Below are positions 3,408-56,629 of a stretch of DNA of 64,000 bases, one piece after another (the first letter of the stretch is position 1; each line of letters opens with the position of its first letter). The translations under genes were made by a program, and so were the position numbers. The stretch comes from Patescibacteria group bacterium (GTDB lineage Bacteria; Patescibacteriota; Minisyncoccia; Phycocordibacterales; SIBU01): positions 115 through 64,114 of the forward strand of contig JAZJZC010000003.1 of the NCBI GenBank assembly GCA_040390045.1, written 5' to 3'. A model generated the notes under the pieces. That model was not told the origin of the DNA. It saw nothing but the letters and a program-made list of their open reading frames with translations, and did no database searches.

Positions 3408-4985
3408 TTGGTCGAAATATTGAAGCCGTTGAAGTGGGATTTCGTGACATTGACAGGTGATTTTGTGCTACAATTACTTTTCGGTATGAAAACACTCGGC
3501 GACAATCACAGTGTTCAGAAGAGCGACAACCCATTTCAAAAAACTCGGGTACAAACGGCTGGCGTCTTTTTTCTGATGATTCTCGTTTCTAGCATTTTTC
3601 CAATCTCCACTTTTGCAGCAAATATTTCAAGTTCGCCCTGCCCATACGTTTGGAAGGAAAATTTAAAATTGGGAAGTTCCAACACTGACGTTCTAAAACT
3701 CCAGCAATTTCTAAATCGTAATCCAGAAACAGCCGTCGCGCTCACGGGCAGTGGCTCAGTCGGCAAAGAGGGGACATATTTCGGAGCGCTGACCAAACAA
3801 GCCGTCATAAAATTTCAAGAAAAATATTCAGCGGATATTTTGACACCCAACGGTCTCTCGAAAGGTACCGGCGCAGTAGCCGCGGCGACTCGCTCTAAAC
3901 TCAATGCACTTTGCACAGGACAAGTAGCGGGAGCTTTCACTTCTGTGGATTCTTCTAAGACGGCCACAACGATAGCTGTCGAAACAAATATTTTAACCGT
4001 CACTGCACCAGCTCAACCTGCTAACACCATCGCGCCAGCAAACGCCGGCGGTGTGCCATTTACCAATTTTACTCTGACCGCAGGCAGTGAAGACGTGACA
4101 GTCAATAACGTGACAGTAGAGCGCACAGGACCTGGCGAAGACGGTGTGTTCTATTCAATTGCACTCAATGATGCAGACGGCAATCAAATTGGAATGGCAA
4201 GAAGCTTGAATTCAAATCACAAAGTTGTCTTGGGCGACCCGTTTGTTGTTCCTGCTCACACCTCACAAACCTTTACCATAACGGGAAACATGGAAAGTGA
4301 CCTTACCAATTACGAAGGTCAGGCACCGATATTGCAAATTGATGCCATCAACACCTCGGTAAAAGTCGTAGGCTCTCTTCCAGTCAGGGGCACTAGTCAA
4401 AACGTAAACACTACGCTGGTCATTGGCACAGCCTACACCTCGCTATCTTCTTTTGATCCTACAGTGGCGACTACCCGCTACATCAATGATACCAATGTCC
4501 GCTTTTCTGGAATTCGGATCACGGCAGATTCACAAGAAGATCTCAGTCTCTCATCGATCGGTTGGGAAAATTCAGGTACCTCTGGAAGCAACGATGTCGA
4601 TCATGTCGTGACAGTCGTACATGAAACTTCGTACCCAACGGAAATAGATGGTAGGATGTTCACATCGGTTTTTGATCCGCCAATCGTTATTCCAAAAGGT
4701 CAGTCGCTCGAGCTCTACGTGCAAGGAAATATCAAACCAAGCGCGGTCAATCGGACTATTAAATTTGATATTCACACGACAGATGATATCGCTCTTTTGG
4801 GAAATAGTTTCGGTTTTTATGTTTCAATTCTTCCTGAAGGCAATACGGGTGCTTCAGGTAATTCTGTCTTTATCACTTCCGACGGCTCACCAGATGGAGA
4901 TAGCGGCTCGCCGTTTTTCAGCGCCTCTCCGGTGAGTGTAAGCGGGGGTACGTTTACGGGTGTAGGGAAGGCAACGTCAAATTAA
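3408..4985 (+). CDS. Secreted protein with putative peptidoglycan-binding (PG_binding_1-like) domain; true start probably at the internal Met near 3486
   Basis: Signal-peptide-like segment AGVFFLMILVSSIFPISTFAAN; motif LKLGSSNTDVLKLQQFLN...GTYFGALTKQAVIKFQEKY resembles PG-binding domain 1. Confidence 0.55.
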   Translation: MVEILKPLKWDFVTLTGDFVLQLLFGMKTLGDNHSVQKSDNPFQKTRVQTAGVFFLMILVSSIFPISTFAANISSSPCPYVWKENLKLGSSNTDVLKLQQFLNRNPETAVALTGSGSVGKEGTYFGALTKQAVIKFQEKYSADILTPNGLSKGTGAVAAATRSKLNALCTGQVAGAFTSVDSSKTATTIAVETNILTVTAPAQPANTIAPANAGGVPFTNFTLTAGSEDVTVNNVTVERTGPGEDGVFYSIALNDADGNQIGMARSLNSNHKVVLGDPFVVPAHTSQTFTITGNMESDLTNYEGQAPILQIDAINTSVKVVGSLPVRGTSQNVNTTLVIGTAYTSLSSFDPTVATTRYINDTNVRFSGIRITADSQEDLSLSSIGWENSGTSGSNDVDHVVTVVHETSYPTEIDGRMFTSVFDPPIVIPKGQSLELYVQGNIKPSAVNRTIKFDIHTTDDIALLGNSFGFYVSILPEGNTGASGNSVFITSDGSPDGDSGSPFFSASPVSVSGGTFTGVGKATSN

Positions 4986-7258: not shown

Positions 7259-8767
7259 ATGTCTTTCAAGAAAACCAATATGCCGACTAAAAATAAAAAA
7301 CCAAGGAGATTGATCTGGATCACAAGCTTCCTCGCCCTTGCGACTGTGATGATTGCGATTTCAGCATCGTGGCTTCTATATCAGCATACAGTAACTCTTA
7401 TTACAGAAAATCTACGGGAACGTCTCTTAACGATATCTATTACAGAAGCTGCCAATATCGACGCAAAAGATATTGAAGCTCTTCGGGTAGAAGACGATTG
7501 GCAAAAACCAGAGTGGGCGCGTGTCGTTAGTAAAATGCAGAAGGCAAAATACAGCAACGAAAGTATTGTCTTCATGTACATATTTCGAAAAACAAAGGAC
7601 GACCCAAACAAGATGGAGTTCGTTGCAGATGCTGATTCTCTCAATCCTTTTGCAAATATGAGTGGTGACCCCTCAATATATGTTGATGTAAATAGAGACG
7701 GAAAGATTGAACCAGATGGTCCAGATAAACTTCAGTGGCCAGGACAGCCCTATCCTGAAGCCGCGGACATTCCAGAAACTGAGCAAGCCTATGGTGGGCC
7801 AATTACGGTAAAAGATTTGTATACTGACGAATATGGAACTGTCCTCACTGGTTATGCTCCGATTAAGGATGATAACGGAAATACTGTTGCGATTCTCGGC
7901 ACAGACATCAAGGCGGACGATTTTTTTGCTGTAACTGGGCAAACACTATATCCATTTTTGGCCTTTATTGCTTTTCTAGTTTCTATTATTCTAACTTTGG
8001 CAGTCGTCTTAATTTACATTTGGAGAAAGCAGGAGTTGGCATTGGAAATAGTAAACGACCGACTGAAAGAGTTGGATCAATTAAAATCAGAGTTTGTGTC
8101 TCTAGCAACACATCAAATAAGAGGTCCACTGGCTTCGATCAAGGGCTACGCCTCACTTATGATAGAGGGTGATTATGGTGAAGTTCCAGCGCAGCTCAAT
8201 GAACCAATCGATGTTATTTTTCGCTCGAGTCAATCCTTGGCTATTGTTGTTGATGACTTTTTGAATGTATCGAGAATTGAACAAGGAAAAATGAAATATG
8301 ATTTTACAACTTTTGACCTATGCGCCTTAGTCCAGGAGGTTTACACAGAAGCTAAACCCAATATTGAGAAAAAGGGCCTTTCAATTTCCAGCAAATGTTC
8401 ACCAGATACAGTCAATATTAATGGTGACCGCGGTAAACTTAAACAAGTTGTTGGAAATATTTTAGATAACTCAATCAAGTACACCCCGAAAGGCAGTATA
8501 AATTTATCTCTCACAGCCGATAAAGCTTCTGGGAAGGCAATCCTCACAATTAAAGATACTGGTGTTGGTATTCGCGCTACGACTATTCCTCATTTGTTCC
8601 AAAAATTTAGCAGAGCGGAGGATGCTTCGAAGGTAAATATTCTTGGAACTGGACTCGGGCTTTATGTGGCACGCGAGATGATAGAAGCGCATGGTGGGCG
8701 GATCTGGGTAGAATCTCCAGGCCTTGGGCAAGGTTCGACGTTTTTTGTGGAGTTTAGAATGGTTTGA
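7259..8767 (+). CDS. Sensor histidine kinase with ~190-aa extracytoplasmic sensor domain between two TM helices
   Basis: H-box HQIRGPLASIKGYASLM, C-terminal HATPase_c (GTGLGLYVAREMIEAHGGRIWVES). Confidence 0.85.
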   Translation: MSFKKTNMPTKNKKPRRLIWITSFLALATVMIAISASWLLYQHTVTLITENLRERLLTISITEAANIDAKDIEALRVEDDWQKPEWARVVSKMQKAKYSNESIVFMYIFRKTKDDPNKMEFVADADSLNPFANMSGDPSIYVDVNRDGKIEPDGPDKLQWPGQPYPEAADIPETEQAYGGPITVKDLYTDEYGTVLTGYAPIKDDNGNTVAILGTDIKADDFFAVTGQTLYPFLAFIAFLVSIILTLAVVLIYIWRKQELALEIVNDRLKELDQLKSEFVSLATHQIRGPLASIKGYASLMIEGDYGEVPAQLNEPIDVIFRSSQSLAIVVDDFLNVSRIEQGKMKYDFTTFDLCALVQEVYTEAKPNIEKKGLSISSKCSPDTVNINGDRGKLKQVVGNILDNSIKYTPKGSINLSLTADKASGKAILTIKDTGVGIRATTIPHLFQKFSRAEDASKVNILGTGLGLYVAREMIEAHGGRIWVESPGLGQGSTFFVEFRMV

Positions 8768-50129: not shown

Positions 50130-50882
50130 GACAATATTGATATGTGGATAAGCCATATTTAACAAGCTGTTACAGCTAAATAGCCGTATTTGCCATAGTT
50201 AATTGACAGAACAAATTAAAACTGTTACTATTTTGCGCAGAGAGTTTAGGTCATTGAGGAGATAGCTAAAAGATTGTTCCCCGCCTCTAGTTCGAAAGAA
50301 AGGTACTACGGCCTTCCGCCACAGCGGACTAAGCGTAGAAAGAAGAGAGGAAGGGGAGAGAAACAGCCTTTTGAATATCTTGTTTCGAATGATGAGTGTT
50401 CTACATATAGTCAGGCTTCGAAACCCTACTAGATGAAGGAGCTATGTCTTTAAGACAAACTTATCGCACGGAGTTCGGCGAGTAATCGCCAGGACATCGA
50501 TGGCGCAAAAAGTCTAACCCGCTTTATGCGTCAAAATGTCCTTACGCCAAGAAGCCGCACAAAAAGAGAGTTGTGCGGAAGTGAAAGGAAAGAGTAAGGA
50601 AGATGTTTGAAAAATAAATAGCGAATCAGGAAAACGCGAAACAAGAAATGTGTTTTGCAATGTTGTTCCTCTTCGCCCCACTCATTAAAAGTTTTTACTT
50701 GAGGTTGGTGGGGTAAGAGGGAATGCAAATGCAATTCCTTTTGTGGCGTTCACGTTCGACAAGCAAGCGGGGACAGTCTAGACCCCCGCTAGCTTGTCGA
50801 AAAATTCTTAGAGACATATCTGAAATGCCGAAAAAAGGCAGGATGTGGAAAGTGGAGATAGTATCAACATTTTCATTTTGAG
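50130..50882. other. ~750-bp noncoding region at the left edge of the high-GC island; multiple hairpins, no supportable ORF
   Basis: GC rises from ~40% to ~50% across it; hairpins at 50553-50578 and 50757-50799; isolated perfect DnaA-box 9-mer TGTGGATAA at 50142-50150. Confidence 0.4.
50757..50799. promoter_or_regulatory. Strong GC-rich hairpin (8+6 bp stem, 11-nt loop containing GTCTAGAC) without a flanking U-tract
   Basis: CGACAAGCaaGCGGGGacagtctagacCCCCGCtaGCTTGTCG. Confidence 0.4.
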
Positions 50883-51239
50883 ATGAGTGAATTCACCATG
50901 ATTAAAATTAACTTCTCCGGCCACCCGGTGGCCGGATTCGACGTTGCTCCTTTGGTGGGAGCCAACCTGCCTTTCGAGGCAGCTACCTTGGCCGAGACGG
51001 TTCGGGAACTCATTTTGGCCCTCCCTGGCCGGGATGAGCTCCTCAAAGGGGCCAAGGCGGAGATAATTCTCCCCGGCCTTGGCAGTGCCGTGGCCGTTTT
51101 GTTGGCCGAATGGCATGGCCAGTTCGGCAACTGGCCCTCGATCCGGTGGGCCGTCCGCGGGGAGAAGGGGTTCACTTGGCCCGACGAGGCCCGGGTGGAC
51201 TTGAACTCCGTGCGGGAGTCCGCACGGACCGCTCGCTAG
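50883..51239 (+). CDS. Hypothetical protein (high-GC island)
   Basis: 118-aa ORF with GC3-rich codon usage distinct from the host; no recognisable motif. Confidence 0.5.
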   Translation: MSEFTMIKINFSGHPVAGFDVAPLVGANLPFEAATLAETVRELILALPGRDELLKGAKAEIILPGLGSAVAVLLAEWHGQFGNWPSIRWAVRGEKGFTWPDEARVDLNSVRESARTAR

Positions 51240-51402
51240 TTGCGGACAAAAATCCCAGAGCAATCTGGTTGCGACAAAATCCGGTCGTGTAAATCGAGGT
51301 AAAAAGTTTGTCCCCGTTTTCTTGGAAAAATGGAGAGTCGTGAAGGAGCAGAACTTCCGTCAGGATGACTGTCGACAATAGTCATGAGGGTTAAATTTAT
51401 CT

Positions 51403-51428
51403 GGAGAAGTTTTGGTTAAAACTTCTCC
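51403..51428. repeat. Perfect hairpin GGAGAAGTTTT-ggtt-AAAACTTCTCC (island hairpin family copy 1), preceded by a second hairpin at 51365-51385
   Basis: Exact 11-bp inverted arms; loop context TTTTGGTTAAAA is shared with copy 2. Confidence 0.6.
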
Positions 51429-51522
51429 TACTTATCAAGTTCATAAAATTATTTTGTGAACTTTTAGGTATCAGAGATGTTCTTTCCAGAAATGGTGGCG
51501 CAAATATTTCGCGCTTCTGTTT

Positions 51523-51969
51523 ATGGAAAGAACACTTGTATTGATAAAACCTTTGGGGCTCCAGAATTCACTTCTGGAAATCCTCCGGGCTTTGAAGTCG
51601 ATTGGCACTATTGTTGAAAGGCAATTGGTTCCGGTTTCAAGTGAGCGGATAGCCGCCCATTACGCCGAACACTCCACAAAGGCGTGGTTCGGCAAGATCG
51701 TGGGTTACTACCACGGTCAGACAGTGATGGCGCTGGTCCTCGAGGGGCCCGACGTCACCGCACGCTTGCGTGGAATTGTCGGACCATCCGACCCGCGGAA
51801 GGCAGCACCCGGACAAATTCGGGCGCTCGTCCTGGCCAAGTTCCAGGATAAAAAAGACGGGTGGCGAGCGATAGAGCTCGTCACTTCTGGCGTGGACAAT
51901 TTTATCCACGCCTCGGACTCTCCGGAGGCCGCCGAGCGAGAAATCGCTCTGTGGTTTCCAAAAAAATAA
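51523..51969 (+). CDS. ndk: Nucleoside diphosphate kinase homolog (divergent)
   Basis: LVLIKPLG…HYAEH…VMALVLEG…NFIHASDSPEAAEREIALWF aligns with the NDK catalytic His loop NxxHGSD and the conserved Lys, Tyr and Glu. Confidence 0.75.
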   Translation: MERTLVLIKPLGLQNSLLEILRALKSIGTIVERQLVPVSSERIAAHYAEHSTKAWFGKIVGYYHGQTVMALVLEGPDVTARLRGIVGPSDPRKAAPGQIRALVLAKFQDKKDGWRAIELVTSGVDNFIHASDSPEAAEREIALWFPKK

Positions 51970-52099
51970 TTTGGGTTTTCAAAGGAGAAGCAAAGGGTTT
52001 TGCTTCTCCTCTTTATTTGGCTCGCGGTAACCGTATGTACGGAAGTATCGTTGGTCAATCAAGAAACCATTCAGCGCAGTGTTGCGCTAGAAAGGAAGT

Positions 52100-52567
52100 A
52101 TGGATATAAAAAAACTTTTCGCCTTGGCAGATAGGGCGAAAACAATTGAGGCAGGGCAAAATTATGCCCTGCCCAATGCGGTGTTTTGCGTTCTCCTCGA
52201 TGTCCTATTCAAGGGCAAAGAGGGAGCGCAGAGTCTCAGGGTGGAACTTGAGACTGAAGATTCAGACGGGTTGTATGTCAACGAGGCGTATTACGACCTG
52301 TTCGTTCTCCGTCATTCCGACGGAGAAGGCTTGTGCATCCCCGCGCCGCTTCTCCATGTGGAGACGGCGATGACCCTAACGAAGAGGGCGCTCGTCACTG
52401 TCAGAGGACAGCACGACCGGCAACATGAGCCGGCCGAATCGGAAGAGTTCTTTAGGCTGTGGGAACAATTCCACGAAGAAGTCTCGCCGGCGAGACTTCT
52501 CGACTCTGTCCGTGAACATCTCAGCAAGTCTGCCCGCTTGGCAGCGGGTTTCCTTGAGACTGAATAA
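52100..52567 (+). CDS. Hypothetical protein (high-GC island)
   Basis: 155-aa ORF, island codon usage, followed by an intrinsic terminator. Confidence 0.45.
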   Translation: MDIKKLFALADRAKTIEAGQNYALPNAVFCVLLDVLFKGKEGAQSLRVELETEDSDGLYVNEAYYDLFVLRHSDGEGLCIPAPLLHVETAMTLTKRALVTVRGQHDRQHEPAESEEFFRLWEQFHEEVSPARLLDSVREHLSKSARLAAGFLETE

Positions 52568-52637
52568 AATAAGTTGAAGGTTACAAGGGAAGAGTGACTT
52601 CCTAATCCTCCGGGATAAATTGTCGCAAGGGTTTATC

Positions 52638-52668
52638 GAGCACCAATATCTTTTGGTGCTCGGGTTTT
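52638..52668 (+). terminator. Intrinsic terminator after the 52100-52567 ORF
   Basis: GAGCACCAA tatctt TTGGTGCTC followed by GGGTTTTTG. Confidence 0.6.
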
Positions 52669-52669
52669 T

Positions 52670-52697
52670 GGAGAAACTTTTGGTTAAAAGTTTCTCC
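52670..52697. repeat. Perfect hairpin GGAGAAACTTTT-ggtt-AAAAGTTTCTCC (island hairpin family copy 2)
   Basis: Exact 12-bp inverted arms; the stem differs from copy 1 by compensatory substitutions; same ggtt loop. Confidence 0.6.
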
Positions 52698-52788
52698 TCT
52701 CGATCGGGCTTGCAATTAATTTTGTAAATCCGTAGAGAGCAATCTCGAACCGCGCTCCGCAGGCGTAACCATCTGTGGAAAATGCCTT

Positions 52789-53607: not shown

Positions 53608-53832
53608 AAATTTTGCGCGTTTTAATTACAAAACGCGTTGCACCCGCAAAGTGGGAAAGGGTTAACACGTGAACGTTGCGGCGTTCATTAAAAAAACAAT
53701 TTTCCAGCACTGCCTTGGTCGGTGGTGTTGGACTTTATCGGGCTCGCGAATTTATTTCGTGCGTCCGTAGAGGTGGCCATTTTTTAAAAAATATCTAATC
53801 AGGTTCAGAATATAAAATTTAAATTTTGAATT

Positions 53833-54930
53833 TTGTATTCTGAACCTGATGACAGAAAAAAATTAAAAAATGTGAATACACCAAATCAAACAATGGTTGA
53901 GTTGGCGGCAAAGTACAAAAAAGCCGCCGATGAAAAAATGGAAGAAATCGTACACCTCTCAAAAGTTTCGCAGGACTCTGCGTACAGAGAGGGATTCAGG
54001 CACGAGGCTCTTTGTCGAGCTCAAACGGCCGCCGAGACTGACAAGGTCTTTTTTAGTGGCCTCGGGGTCAAGGGTGTTCTCATCCTTGGCATTTCAACTC
54101 TCGAGCCTAAAAAAGCTCAGAGCGTTATCGCCTCGTCAGGCGGTTGGAAGTCACACGCGAATTCGACCCTGCTCTGCCTAGATGGAGAGAAAGGGGAAAT
54201 TCGTAAGAACAAAGCGGGGACATGCTGGATCATCGATCTTGCATCTCCGCGGCGGACAGCCATGTTTGCGTGGGAATCCGGACCAAAGTCAGTTCGGCTC
54301 GCTGGACCTCGACTTAATACCACCAACGGCGCAGCTCACTGGTGTGGACTTGTGTCGGAGATGATGCCGTTCAATACGGAAATGTCCCCGCACACAGCTT
54401 CGTTTCTTAAGCGAGCCGTAGCTTGCATGACCGAACATGGGATGACCCCCAAGCAATGGGAGCGTGCCGAAAATGCTCGGCGTACTGCCGAGAGCGAACG
54501 ACGATCCGAGATCATCTGTGCCGCCACGAAGGCTGGGCAAATTGACGGTGTCGTTGTCTGTGTTGAGTGTGGTTGCAACCCAACTCGGGGTGAGAATTAT
54601 ATTCTTGCTGCCGAGGAGCTCGCCGGTACTACTGGCCCTGTGCCAGAAAATCTCGCGGAGTTAGTCCACGCGAAAATCGCGGCTACCAAACTGGCGGCCG
54701 AAGAAGCTCGGATTATGGCCGAGCTGAAATCTGAACAGCTTCGAATTACTGAGGCAAAAATCGAGGCGGAAGTCACAGCAAAACAACAGGTAGAAACTGA
54801 AAAAGTTTGCCGTTTGATCGGTGTCTCTTTTGCCGAATGGCAAGGACTGACGCCAAAACAACAAAGACAAGCGCTTCATCGCGCTCGTCTCGCGGGTAAA
54901 CTTCAAACGCAGAAATACAGAAATAAATGA
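53833..54930 (+). CDS. Hypothetical protein with Cys cluster (CVECGC) and C-terminal coiled coil, high-GC island
   Basis: 365-aa ORF; C-terminal A/E/K-rich helical region. Confidence 0.5.
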   Translation: MYSEPDDRKKLKNVNTPNQTMVELAAKYKKAADEKMEEIVHLSKVSQDSAYREGFRHEALCRAQTAAETDKVFFSGLGVKGVLILGISTLEPKKAQSVIASSGGWKSHANSTLLCLDGEKGEIRKNKAGTCWIIDLASPRRTAMFAWESGPKSVRLAGPRLNTTNGAAHWCGLVSEMMPFNTEMSPHTASFLKRAVACMTEHGMTPKQWERAENARRTAESERRSEIICAATKAGQIDGVVVCVECGCNPTRGENYILAAEELAGTTGPVPENLAELVHAKIAATKLAAEEARIMAELKSEQLRITEAKIEAEVTAKQQVETEKVCRLIGVSFAEWQGLTPKQQRQALHRARLAGKLQTQKYRNK

Positions 54931-55238: not shown

Positions 55239-55513
55239 CCAAATCACGGAGCGCGGACCTCCCTTAATTGTCCGACAAGTTTGCAAGTTCACGGAGAGTC
55301 TTGCAAAATTTCAGGGTTAAAAATTCTCCACTTCTAATGCAGCCATCATTCTAATATTCTTGTCCGTATCAAATGTAACCAATTATTTTAAAGGTACATT
55401 TGGGCGGGTTAAATTACGAGATTGATGCCGGTCACAAGCCCGAATAAATTGCAGAGTGGGATGTGTACCCCAAGGGGTTCACGAAGCGTGTGTTTCTCTC
55501 TTCGCACACAAAA

Positions 55514-55550
55514 CAAAACCGCCCCGATGTAGATCGGGGCGGTTTTGTTT
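55514..55550. terminator. Bidirectional intrinsic terminator immediately downstream of ruvB
   Basis: AAAACCGCCCCGAT gtag ATCGGGGCGGTTTTGTTTT. Confidence 0.75.
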
Positions 55551-56629
55551 TACAAAAGTTTTTCCTGAGCCGAAGATTTATTTTTAATTTTAAGGTGTCC
55601 GTAAGCTTTCGCTGTGGCAGTCCGGCCGCGTGGAGTTCGCTCGATAAGGCCGAGCTGAAGCAGGTAGGGTTCGTTGACTTCCTCGATAGTGGCTTGTTCT
55701 TCGGAGAGCGCGGCGGCGAGGGTATTAAGTCCCACTGGTCCACCATCAAATTTTTCGATAAGGGTATTTAAAAGAGAGCGATCAGAATGCCCGAGACCGA
55801 GTTCGTCAATGCCGAGAAGGGCCAGTGCTTTGTCCACAATGTCTTTAGATAATTTTCCTTTATTCACTTGCGCAAAATCTCTCGCCCGCTTCAAAAGATA
55901 GTTGGCGGTTCGCGGCGTGAAGCGGCTGCGTTTGGCAATTTCTGCTCCAGCCAATTTTTCTACCTCAACTCCTAAAATTTTGGCAGACCGGCGCACGATT
56001 TCTTCGATCTCTTCGTTTGAATAAAATTCCAAACGGAAAACGCCACCACCAAAGCGTGAACGTAATGGTGAAGAGAGAAGTGCGATGCGTGTAGTTGCGG
56101 CAATGAGGGTAAACGGCGGTAGTTCAAGCTGAATGGTTCGAGCTGAAGGACCTTTGCCGATAATAATGTCGAGCTGACCCGACTCCATGGCAGGGTAGAG
56201 GACTTCTTCGATAGCTTTATTGAGTCGATGAATTTCATCGATGAACAAAATGTCGCCTGGAGCGAGGTTGGTGAGTACCGAGGCAAGATCGCCCACCTTT
56301 TCAATGGCAGGTCCCGAAGTAATTTTGATTTGAGCACCGATTTCTTTAGCGATTAGGTGAGCGAGGGTGGTTTTTCCGAGCCCCGGGGGTCCATAAAAGA
56401 GCAAATGTTCCGGCGGATGCTTCCGTTCGGCGGCAGCAGTGAGCAAAATCCTCAAGTTTTCCTTGATATTTTTTTGCCCAATGTAATCTTCCCACAAACT
56501 CGGTCTTAGAGCCTGATCAAGAAAGATTTCTTCTTCCACTAAAACTTCCTTTTTACCCTTATTGTTAGGGCTATTTTCCTCTTCCTGCGAGCCAGGTTGT
56601 GTAAGTTTATTTACGGAACTTCTTGACAT
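55550..56629 (-). CDS. ruvB: Holliday junction branch migration ATPase RuvB
   Basis: Walker [18 protein letters not shown], Walker [12 protein letters not shown]-terminal winged helix. Confidence 0.95.

Follow-up and report, generated by a model that had tools for sequence, protein, structure and literature searches.

A structured RNA element between the genes of a variable Patescibacteria locus and its possible role in mRNA processing

The island and its genes

The stretch of DNA considered here (the window) covers 64 kb of contig JAZJZC010000003.1 from a Patescibacteria group bacterium and contains, at 50.9–55.4 kb, an island with around 51% G+C compared with around 42% in its surroundings. 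The spacers between the genes of this island carry a structured RNA element of two abutting hairpins (~67 nucleotides, roughly 70), which is the subject of this study. Six genes on the same strand make up the island and encode a 113-aa Csx15-like protein, NDK, and proteins of 155, 266, 345, and 103 aa, the last four having no family matches; a divergent gene for a TrmB-like regulator and the convergent ruvB gene form the boundaries. The 345-aa protein (p345) has 28 homologs besides itself, the named ones coming from Candidatus Taylorbacteria and Paceibacteria assemblies. Where the flanks of these homologs were retrieved, the TrmB-like/p345/ruvB arrangement recurs and the accompanying small genes differ. 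Because this order is kept while the small genes change, the island is a cassette region of variable content within a conserved locus of the candidate phyla radiation (CPR), and not the one-off foreign insertion that a first-pass annotation of this DNA had seen in it. Related loci are referred to below by L numbers, and the features of the island are listed in Table 1.

Table 1. Positions of the element copies and neighbouring features in the window, and of hammerhead ribozymes at related loci.
Feature	Position	Strand	Description	Score	Minimum free energy, kcal/mol
Element copy 1	51403..51470	+	P2 51403–51428; second hairpin 51429–51470, upper stem 51437–51463	R1 70.2 bits, E 4e-13	-27.9 (z -7.05); minus strand only -19.8
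Element copy 2	51984..52064	+	P2 51984–52009, tail UCUUUAUUUGG, then longer second hairpin; not in seed	R1 34.8 bits, E 3.5e-5	-33.8 (z -5.81)
Element copy 3	52670..52738	+	P2 52670–52697, tail UCUCGAUCGGG, second hairpin, then UCCGUAGAGA	R1 58.9 bits, E 1.4e-10	-28.7 (z -6.38); minus strand -21.2
Element copy 4	53704..53773	+	P2 53704–53731 CCAGCACTGCC-TTGGTC-GGTGGTGTTGG, tail ACUUUAUCGGG, second hairpin, then UCCGUAGAGG	R1 54.3 bits, E 1.6e-9	-37.6 (z -6.03); minus strand -14.9 (z -1.4)
Copy 5, P2-type hairpin only	55293..55329	+	GGAGAGT … ATTCTCC, large loop with GGGTTAAAA	93% identity to 51414–51428	
Twister-like RNA (tentative), abuts copy 5	55330..55464	+	ACUUC-UAA-UGCA-GCC 55330–55344; ~82-nt insert; GCCGGUCACAAGCCCGAAUAAAU 55427–55449; UGCA-GAGUGG-GAUGU 55450–55464		
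P1 hairpin relic	51365..51385	+	ATGACT-GTCGACAAT-AGTCAT, then linker GAGGGTTAAATTTATCT into P2; aligns with L023 and canonical P1		
Terminator-like hairpin	52637..52669	+	CGAGCACCAA-TATCTT-TTGGTGCTCG (hairpin 52637–52662), then GGTTTTT; directly upstream of copy 3		
Promoter-like site, sigma-70 type	50203..50231	+	TTGACA-17-TACTAT with TG	10/12 consensus matches, best in 49.9–55.7 kb	
Canonical bidirectional intrinsic terminator	55510..55551		19-bp stem flanked by A and T runs; closes island and convergent ruvB		
Hammerhead III, L002	815–868	sense			
Hammerhead III, L006	1690–1755	sense			
Hammerhead III, L014	3337–3388	sense			
Hammerhead III, L016	3–57	sense			
Hammerhead III, L021	2765–2819	sense			
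Hammerhead III, L021	5402–5456	sense			
Hammerhead III, L022	3531–3581	sense			
Hammerhead III, L023	3468–3522	sense			
Hammerhead III, L025	9329–9381	sense			
Hammerhead III, L027	11068–11122	sense			
Hammerhead III, L027	11798–11848	sense			

A repeated two-hairpin element

Two perfect hairpins with a GGTT loop had been noted in the first-pass annotation, and both are present: one at 51403–51428 (GGAGAAGTTTT-GGTT-AAAACTTCTCC, 11 bp) and the other at 52670–52697 (GGAGAAACTTTT-GGTT-AAAAGTTTCTCC, 12 bp). Their 12-nt core, TTTTGGTTAAAA, is not significant by itself (4 matches with up to one mismatch versus 2.3 expected); the pattern GGAGAA-N8-24-TTCTCC occurs four times versus 0.13 expected. Three of these four occurrences are perfect hairpins spanning 1.3 kb, and the fourth (52322–52355) lies in coding sequence and forms no hairpin. 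The third perfect hairpin, at 51984–52009 (GGAGAAGCAAA-GGGT-TTTGCTTCTCC) directly 3′ of the NDK stop codon, is new here, as is a further element at 53704–53773 with a stem of different sequence. A degenerate copy reported earlier is real, GGTTAAAAATTCTCC at 55315–55329 being the 3′ arm of a 7-bp GGAGAGT/ATTCTCC stem (55293–55329) with a large loop. The two hairpins and the degenerate third therefore exist as described, albeit within a total of five copies in the window and not two plus one. The further observation that both GGTT stems belong to tandem pairs is also borne out, the partners being a relic of an upstream hairpin (P1) and a terminator-like hairpin, respectively.

Stems of unrelated sequence at the related loci are followed by the same 3′ continuation, ACUUYAUUGAG, then by a variable hairpin and UUCAUAGAGU, and the hairpin that had been regarded as the whole unit is really one part, P2, of a larger two-domain element. 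P2 is a hairpin of 7–12 bp with G:C pairs at its base, its stem sequence and loop being free to vary; that of copy 4 is unrelated in sequence to the other P2s and rich in G·U pairs. The second hairpin is near-continuous over 20–25 bp (18–25 bp in folds), is interrupted by one bulge, mismatch, or internal loop, and reads 5′ ACUUUA(U)UGAG… / …UUCA-UAGAGU 3′. The lower 10 bp of this hairpin show sequence conservation (5′ ACUUYAUUGAG / 3′ UUCAUAGAGU), and its top is variable. In an alignment of 22 sequences, P2 is followed by a helix of 3 bp (ACU:AGU), then by a small internal loop, and finally by the long hairpin P3, which has UGAG:UUCA at its base. Minimum free energy folds of all four full copies give this two-domain structure, with z scores of -5.8 to -7.1.

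A covariance model built from the 22-sequence seed (R1; match cut-off E <= 1e-4) places one full copy in each of the island spacers between genes (4/4), all on the sense strand, with the fifth P2 sitting after the last island gene. All R1 matches in the window lie on one strand at 51.4–53.8 kb, and the other 58 kb of the 64-kb window hold no copy of the element. A small peptide encoded within the hairpin (TTG GTT AAA …) was considered and rejected: a 15-codon frame is common to copies 1 and 3, and the L023 ortholog shifts the frame, as judged by eye.

Covariation and strand specificity

The earlier proposal of selection on structure had been drawn from two paralogs, which alone are thin evidence; with orthologs and paralogs from around 13 genomes it holds. 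The seed alignment has 92.9% of cells paired and changes on both sides at 23 of 27 pairs, compared with 31%–47% pairing in slid controls and with 0 of 500 shuffles reaching the observed value. At E <= 1e-4, R1 finds 35 matches within 183 kb (related DNA searched with R1 amounts to ~220 kb in all), 13 of which lie outside the seed and all of which (35/35) are on the gene strand; four fall in the window and 31 in around 12 related CPR loci of Taylorbacteria/Paceibacteria type. In the alignment of these matches—which is fitted to R1 and hence biased towards its structure—94.5% of cells are paired, both-side changes occur at 22 of 25 pairs, and slid controls stay at <=48%. P2 taken family-wide is 95% paired, with both-side changes at 9 of 10 pairs. 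The hairpin structure is real and under selection.

A closely comparable locus, L023, has the same punctuation pattern of copies along its genes as the window and provides orthologs for individual copies. That of copy 1 (L023 665–732) has one extra U:A pair in P2, gained on both arms, and UCCGU…GCGGA in place of UUCAU…GUGAA at the base of P3. In the ortholog of copy 2 (L023 1240–1321; P2 at 1240–1267), the arms GGAGGAGCGAAA/UUUCGCUCCUCC stand against GGAGAAGCAAA/UUUGCUUCUCC in the window, with A:U replaced by G:C and a pair gained on both arms. The ortholog of copy 5 (L023 2929–3012) is a full element scoring 52.8 bits. Had the copies in the window been parts of a longer simple direct repeat, the covariation argument would have fallen; copies 1 and 3 are alike within the ~70-nt element only, their flanks do not align, and their longest direct repeat is 18 nt at 89%. 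Because the likeness is confined to ~70 nt, a long recent duplication is ruled out, and the two copies are diverged paralogs. A side observation concerns L004 7053–7505, where the element is split after ACUUUA by an insertion of ~355 nt carrying a truncated IS110-type DEDD transposase fragment, with P3 and CUCAUAGAGU resuming at 7444–7505.

Pairs of G·U type are frequent in the family (one pair is G·U in 22 of 35 sequences, for example, and a second is U·G in 19 of 35), and the fold is therefore strand-specific, pointing to RNA. The minus strands of the window copies fold 7–23 kcal/mol less stably than the plus strands because many pairs are G·U. The structure acts on the sense strand as RNA. 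Among the functions first offered for the hairpins, an RNA processing site fits best, as is argued below, while a protein-binding cruciform is disfavoured because the G·U pairs are strand-specific. Rfam 15 at gathering thresholds has no match to the element in the window or in 17 loci, and at E <= 1–10 (including Pistol, Hatchet, twister-sister, Drum, and RAGATH-18) it gives only generic hairpin overlaps (miRNA/plastid 3′UTR) of 16–25 bits. We regard the element as a well-supported structured RNA family of CPR/Patescibacteria without a counterpart in Rfam 15.

The U-rich tail and transcription termination

The stretch following P2 is U-rich and is conserved because it is base-paired. It covaries as a helix strand: the first pair changes from A:U to U:A in 8 of 35 sequences, and further in there are changes from U:A to C:G and from A:U to G:C. 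As in Rho-independent terminators, a stable hairpin with a G:C base (GG…CC, a perfect 11–12 bp) stands ahead of U-rich sequence where a cistron ends; unlike in such terminators, there is no run of >=~4 contiguous U within 7–8 U-rich nucleotides, the tails reading UACUUAUC, UCUUUAUU, UCUCGAUC, and ACUUUAUC, and the tail is paired into the second helix. Terminators of the host are canonical, with U/A tracts. The earlier view that the hairpins are not simple terminators was thus a reasonable one, given the missing U run, the paired and covarying tail, and the canonical form of the host's own signals.

A weaker form of termination was also considered, in which P2 and the tail ACUUUAUU would act as a leaky intrinsic terminator or attenuator that imposes graded polarity on the operon; the second hairpin would then be secondary and might, for example, stabilise read-through RNA. 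This would suit a stable P2 with G:C at its base and 5 U in the next 8 nt, the location of copies at cistron 3′ ends, some of them upstream of internal promoters, and the flagging of copy 2 by a terminator scan (a lax scan that only this copy passed). We nevertheless regard it as unlikely: the U residues are not contiguous, the first tail bases being A/U and then C; helix covariation explains the conservation of the tail; the host's own terminators carry long U/A tracts; and the same hairpins precede ribozymes (see below), which need no terminator. A reading of the conserved tails as a promoter (TTGAG … TAGAGT as -35 and -10) was rejected, as the spacing ranges from 18 to >50 nt, the segment covaries as a helix, and the real promoters lie elsewhere. 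Promoters at related loci are of canonical sigma-70 type (TTGACT…TAnnAT-like, TTGACx-17-TAnnAT) and outside the element.

The upstream hairpin and downstream blocks

Canonical copies in related genomes possess an additional hairpin, P1, upstream of P2 (CCCG-CCGCAA-CGGG-UCAAUUUCAACC). Its 6-nt loop, CCGCAA, is complementary to the UUGCGG loop of P2, and the resulting loop–loop helix is 93.8% paired. Three L023 copies have CUGUAA:UUACAG, with C:G replaced by U:A at two positions, and L014 has CCGCAU:GUGCGG with one U·G; loop–loop covariation is modest because the three L023 copies may stem from a single event.

In Pistol ribozymes, the 6-nt loop of a 5′ hairpin engages in a pseudoknot with a stretch that the following helix encloses, across a linker of ~12 nt. 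The P1-loop pseudoknot of the element recalls this topology; unlike Pistol, the element lacks the P3 stem and G-U cleavage bulge, its pseudoknot is optional, and the Rfam Pistol model gives no match. As a separate observation, a motif of ~55 nt common to window 52585–52635 and L006 4100–4165 lies upstream of an element copy at both sites (copy 3 in the window), and a pseudoknot can form between the loop of its first hairpin, G(U/C)GAC, and GUCGC farther downstream. A Pistol-like reading of this motif was rejected, there being two examples only and no match to the Pistol model.

Downstream of the element at related loci there is often a block GUUCUUUR, followed by a hairpin in the 5′ untranslated region (UTR) that holds the start codon in its 3′ arm. 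Hairpins of this type (…UUCAUAGC … GCUAUGAA…) occur at window 51478–51535, at L023 1430–1470 and 4175–4220, and at L002, L008, L021, L022, and L027. In the window, only NDK has its start codon buried in this way (GUUCUUUCCA … UGGAAAGAAC, -30.6 kcal/mol, z -6.2), the other genes having ordinary Shine–Dalgarno sites.

These hairpins bear on another possible function, namely that the element, without cleavage, controls the downstream gene, either by binding a regulatory protein at the RNA level or by switching translation, its UUCAUAG 3′ strand (complementary to CUAUGAA) competing with the 5′-UTR hairpin for the start region CUAUGAA. Conservation of the lower stem in sequence and not in structure only would fit such a role, as would the recurrence of UUCAUAG in the 5′ arm of those downstream hairpins that bury a start codon, and the cassette unit is apparently the element together with the gene that follows it, as seen with NDK and with homologs of the 266-aa protein (p266). 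The idea nonetheless seems to us very unlikely to be correct, since the distance to the next start codon ranges from 36 to >200 nt, a promoter may intervene (L023 3297; window 53704), most window genes have an ordinary Shine–Dalgarno site and no sequestering hairpin, and the interchangeability with ribozymes described next would be left unexplained.

Ribozymes in equivalent spacers

Sister spacers of the related loci contain 11 type III hammerhead cores, without exception on the sense strand; 10 have the canonical sequence (CUGAUGAG), and that at L027 11823 reads CCGAUGAG. They have the CUGAUGA … GAAA core, a UH cleavage site, and three helices with stem III open, and an alignment of nine shows 100% pairing with both-side changes at 13 of 15 pairs. 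Each of the 11 is preceded by an abutting hairpin, often of GGAGA…UCUCC type, and the cleavage site lies 6–7 nt past this hairpin. No hammerhead was found in the window by Rfam model search.

A second kind of ribozyme-like RNA follows P2 in both the window and L023. Directly after the fifth P2 of the window comes UAAUGCAGCC … GCCGGUCACAAGCCCGAAUAAAUUGCAGAGUGG, whose blocks resemble the conserved ones of the twister-P1 consensus: UAA-UGCA-GCC … GCCGGUCACAAGCCCGAAUAAAU-UGCA-GAGUGG is found where the consensus has UAA, GCC, the CGGUCCCAAGCCCG loop region, AAA, and GAGGG. The twister-like RNAs of the window and L023 have the cores UAAUGCAGCC and GGUCACAAGCCCG in common, together with the UAA, GCC, AAA, and GAGUGG blocks. 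Within the loop, CCC has become CAC and is paired by a change from GGG to GUG in the presumed pseudoknot partner; these partners we take to be the T1 pseudoknot of twister, which would be kept. The identification of 55330–55464 as a twister-like RNA is tentative.

In L023, one and the same 26-nt P2, GGACGAGUUUUUACAGAAACUCGUCC, with its kissing P1, stands ahead of the second hairpin in one place (4096) and of the twister-like RNA in another (4506). The second hairpin is thus interchangeable in position with ribozymes. According to a review, bacterial self-cleaving ribozymes cluster near each other, and a role in the processing of polycistronic mRNA has been proposed for them (PMC6765202); our literature search found no paper tying ribozymes to CPR/Patescibacteria loci of this kind.

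Interchangeability raises the question of whether the element as a whole, or the second hairpin combined with P2, might be a new self-cleaving (or otherwise catalytic) ribozyme class in the hammerhead/twister slot. It swaps position with the twister-like RNA behind an identical P2 in L023, occupies spacer positions equivalent to those of the hammerheads, has strongly conserved nucleotides flanking its helices and a loop–loop tertiary contact, and is without an Rfam family match; earlier ribozyme classes came from the same kind of neighbourhood association (PMC6765202). A new self-cleaving class is disfavoured because nearly all of the conserved bases are simply paired, in a near-continuous helix with one bulge, whereas known self-cleavers have compact cores rich in junctions. 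Moreover, P1 and its contact with the P2 loop can be dispensed with, both being missing in the window copies, and the sequence and loop of P2 vary freely. We consider a new ribozyme class decidedly unlikely; if it were one, the element would join hammerhead and twister as interchangeable punctuation of a hypervariable, possibly anti-defence CPR locus, that is, a ribozyme-punctuated cassette array.

Proposed role in mRNA processing

Ribozymes occupy the same slot in related genomes, and therefore the element most likely marks an mRNA cut and a protected end. The reading we favour, with middling confidence, is accordingly that of an intercistronic module for mRNA processing and 3′-end protection. 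The element would be transcribed with the genes and would punctuate a polycistronic island mRNA. Its second hairpin would be an endonucleolytic processing site, most likely for a double-strand-specific RNase of the host, in the manner of the RNase III sites of phage T7 early genes. Cleavage would leave P2, braced by P1 where this is present, at the new 3′ terminus of the upstream cistron, where it would shield that terminus from 3′ exonucleases. In sister spacers, a twister-like or hammerhead ribozyme behind the P2 module would make the cut without protein. We infer that the module downstream of P2 is in each case a cutting device, whether a ribozyme or a substrate for a double-strand-specific RNase. 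The form of the second domain, an irregular hairpin of 18–25 bp (~two helical turns) between cistrons, is that of an RNase III-type site.

Among known systems, phage T7 early genes have RNase III processing hairpins between cistrons, and similar intercistronic stabiliser hairpins exist. The element probably works most like these T7-type hairpins: both are irregular, ~20 bp in length with a small internal loop or bulge, and placed between the cistrons of one transcript with one per junction, and after the cut the upstream mRNA ends in a 3′ hairpin (as would be expected for the element). It differs in having two abutting hairpins and an optional kissing hairpin, in the sequence conservation of its lower stem across genomes, and in its CPR host. 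Conceptually it belongs with the ribozyme-associated RAGATH and Drum motifs of Weinberg and Breaker, which are likewise conserved intergenic RNAs found near hammerhead or twister ribozymes or ribozyme-associated genes. It matches neither Drum nor RAGATH-18, the two present in Rfam to which the comparison is limited; a k-turn is missing, and the GA-containing segment is Watson–Crick paired. A k-turn or GA-motif reading of UGAG was rejected in the same way, its positions covarying as Watson–Crick pairs.

Several points weigh against a processing and protection role. We infer cleavage solely from the position of the element and its interchangeability with ribozymes, and the ribozyme assignments themselves fall below Rfam gathering scores. 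The hammerheads score 23–39.5 bits with Hammerhead_3 (gathering score 48.5; E down to 1.5e-5). The twister-like RNA of the window reaches 22.7 bits with twister-P1 and its L023 homolog (4533–4680) 28.3 bits (E 3e-4, local search), compared with a gathering score of 67.2; the window score is low because twister-P1 penalises the ~82-nt insert separating the halves, and the model probably misaligns the 5′ half. A P1 relic (GUCG(A)CAA … GGGUU plus linker) is retained in the window copies, but it has lost its loop complementarity. Some copies lie upstream of an internal promoter or operator (window 53704–53773 before a palindrome at 53798–53850; L023 3297 before a promoter) and would behave as 3′-UTR or terminal elements that are not strictly intercistronic. 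P2 with its U-rich tail could also give partial termination. A signature of RNase III (rnc) was not seen in the retrieved DNA, which is a small fraction of each genome and hence uninformative on this point.

What bacterial hammerhead and twister ribozymes do has long been an open question, and an identical P2 module joined in one case to a twister-like RNA and in another to a conserved long hairpin amounts to a natural swap experiment. This swap bears on the idea that such ribozymes act in the processing of operon mRNAs, with a protected 3′ end as the result. With the element, a structured RNA family is added to the almost uncharted non-coding RNAs of CPR/Patescibacteria, and its length of ~70 nt makes it a short candidate for assays of self-cleavage or RNase III cleavage.

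Cassette variation and neighbouring features

The variable gene content between the TrmB-like gene and ruvB suggests a further explanation, at the level of DNA, in which the element would mark a cassette boundary, either as a folded single-strand recombination site (attC-like) or as a homology block through which cassettes are shuffled. In T4-type phages, promoter/stem-loop cassettes serve as repeated blocks that shuffle genes. At the locus described here, gene content differs among relatives, elements flank each cassette, and all copies have one orientation; the copy at L004 7053, moreover, is split by an IS110-like fragment. Integron attC sites are also found in one orientation with one per promoterless cassette. 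Unlike them, the element has no integrase beside it (the divergent neighbour being the TrmB-like regulator), has two hairpins and not one, and ends in ACUUYAUUGAG and UUCAUAGAGU compared with the RYYYAAC … GTTRRRY of attC, so that its conserved ends do not resemble R″/R′ boxes. No gene for an integrase or another recombinase lies next to the element in the window or, where genes were called, at related loci; equivalent slots are taken by bona fide RNA ribozymes, and the copies within a genome have diverged without being homogenised. A DNA-level boundary is on these grounds a most improbable account. REP/BIME sequences, which are scattered through a genome in either orientation, are likewise repeated, structure-conserved palindromes between genes; the element differs from them in that its copies are at one locus and on one strand, with none in the other 58 kb of the window, in its conserved boxes, and in that no RAYT transposase is nearby.

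The likely start of the island sense transcript is the promoter-like site at 50203–50231. The ~660 nt between this strong promoter and the first island gene (window 50232–50897), in which there is no called gene or Rfam match, contain a hairpin at 50755–50801 followed by AAAUUCUUAGAGA.

Csx15/Csx3-like cassette proteins are encoded at window 50898–51239, L004 4800–5159, and L025 9543–9848 (PADLOC Csx15 E 2.3e-6, Pfam Cas_csx3 E 3.8e-5); Csx15 and Csx3 are CRISPR-associated candidate ring nucleases. Other cassettes in the relatives encode NDK, HepT/MNT, PemK, and a beta-CASP metallo-beta-lactamase. This gene content hints that the cassette region is tied to defence or anti-defence.

In the p345 protein (window 53873–54930), 28 residues are invariant, and Pfam, PHROG, and PADLOC gave no match. 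AlphaFold models it with confidence (pLDDT 90.6), and Foldseek finds nothing similar in the PDB (best E = 2). The GTG at 53873 is probably its start codon, which would give the MNT… N-terminus of the homologs. The most phage-like setting of a p345 homolog, albeit a distant one, is L026 1–21002, near genes for RecT, RusA, a DnaB-like protein, and a ParB-methyltransferase; this contig has no copy of the RNA element. A viral origin was rejected: protein-based scans of IMG/VR showed no relatives of p345 or p266, and a DNA scan with both conserved tails gave two matches, about the number estimated from chance, both of which look coding and have poor model scores.

A large palindrome on TATTCTGAA / TTCAGAATA lies just upstream of p345 at window 53798–53850 and recurs at L002 420–449, L008 5875–5904 and 7131–7160, and L013 2567–2596. 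In the window it overlaps a promoter-like sequence, ATGACA-N17-TGAATA, which resembles the 50203 promoter, and it may be an operator of the divergent TrmB-like regulator.

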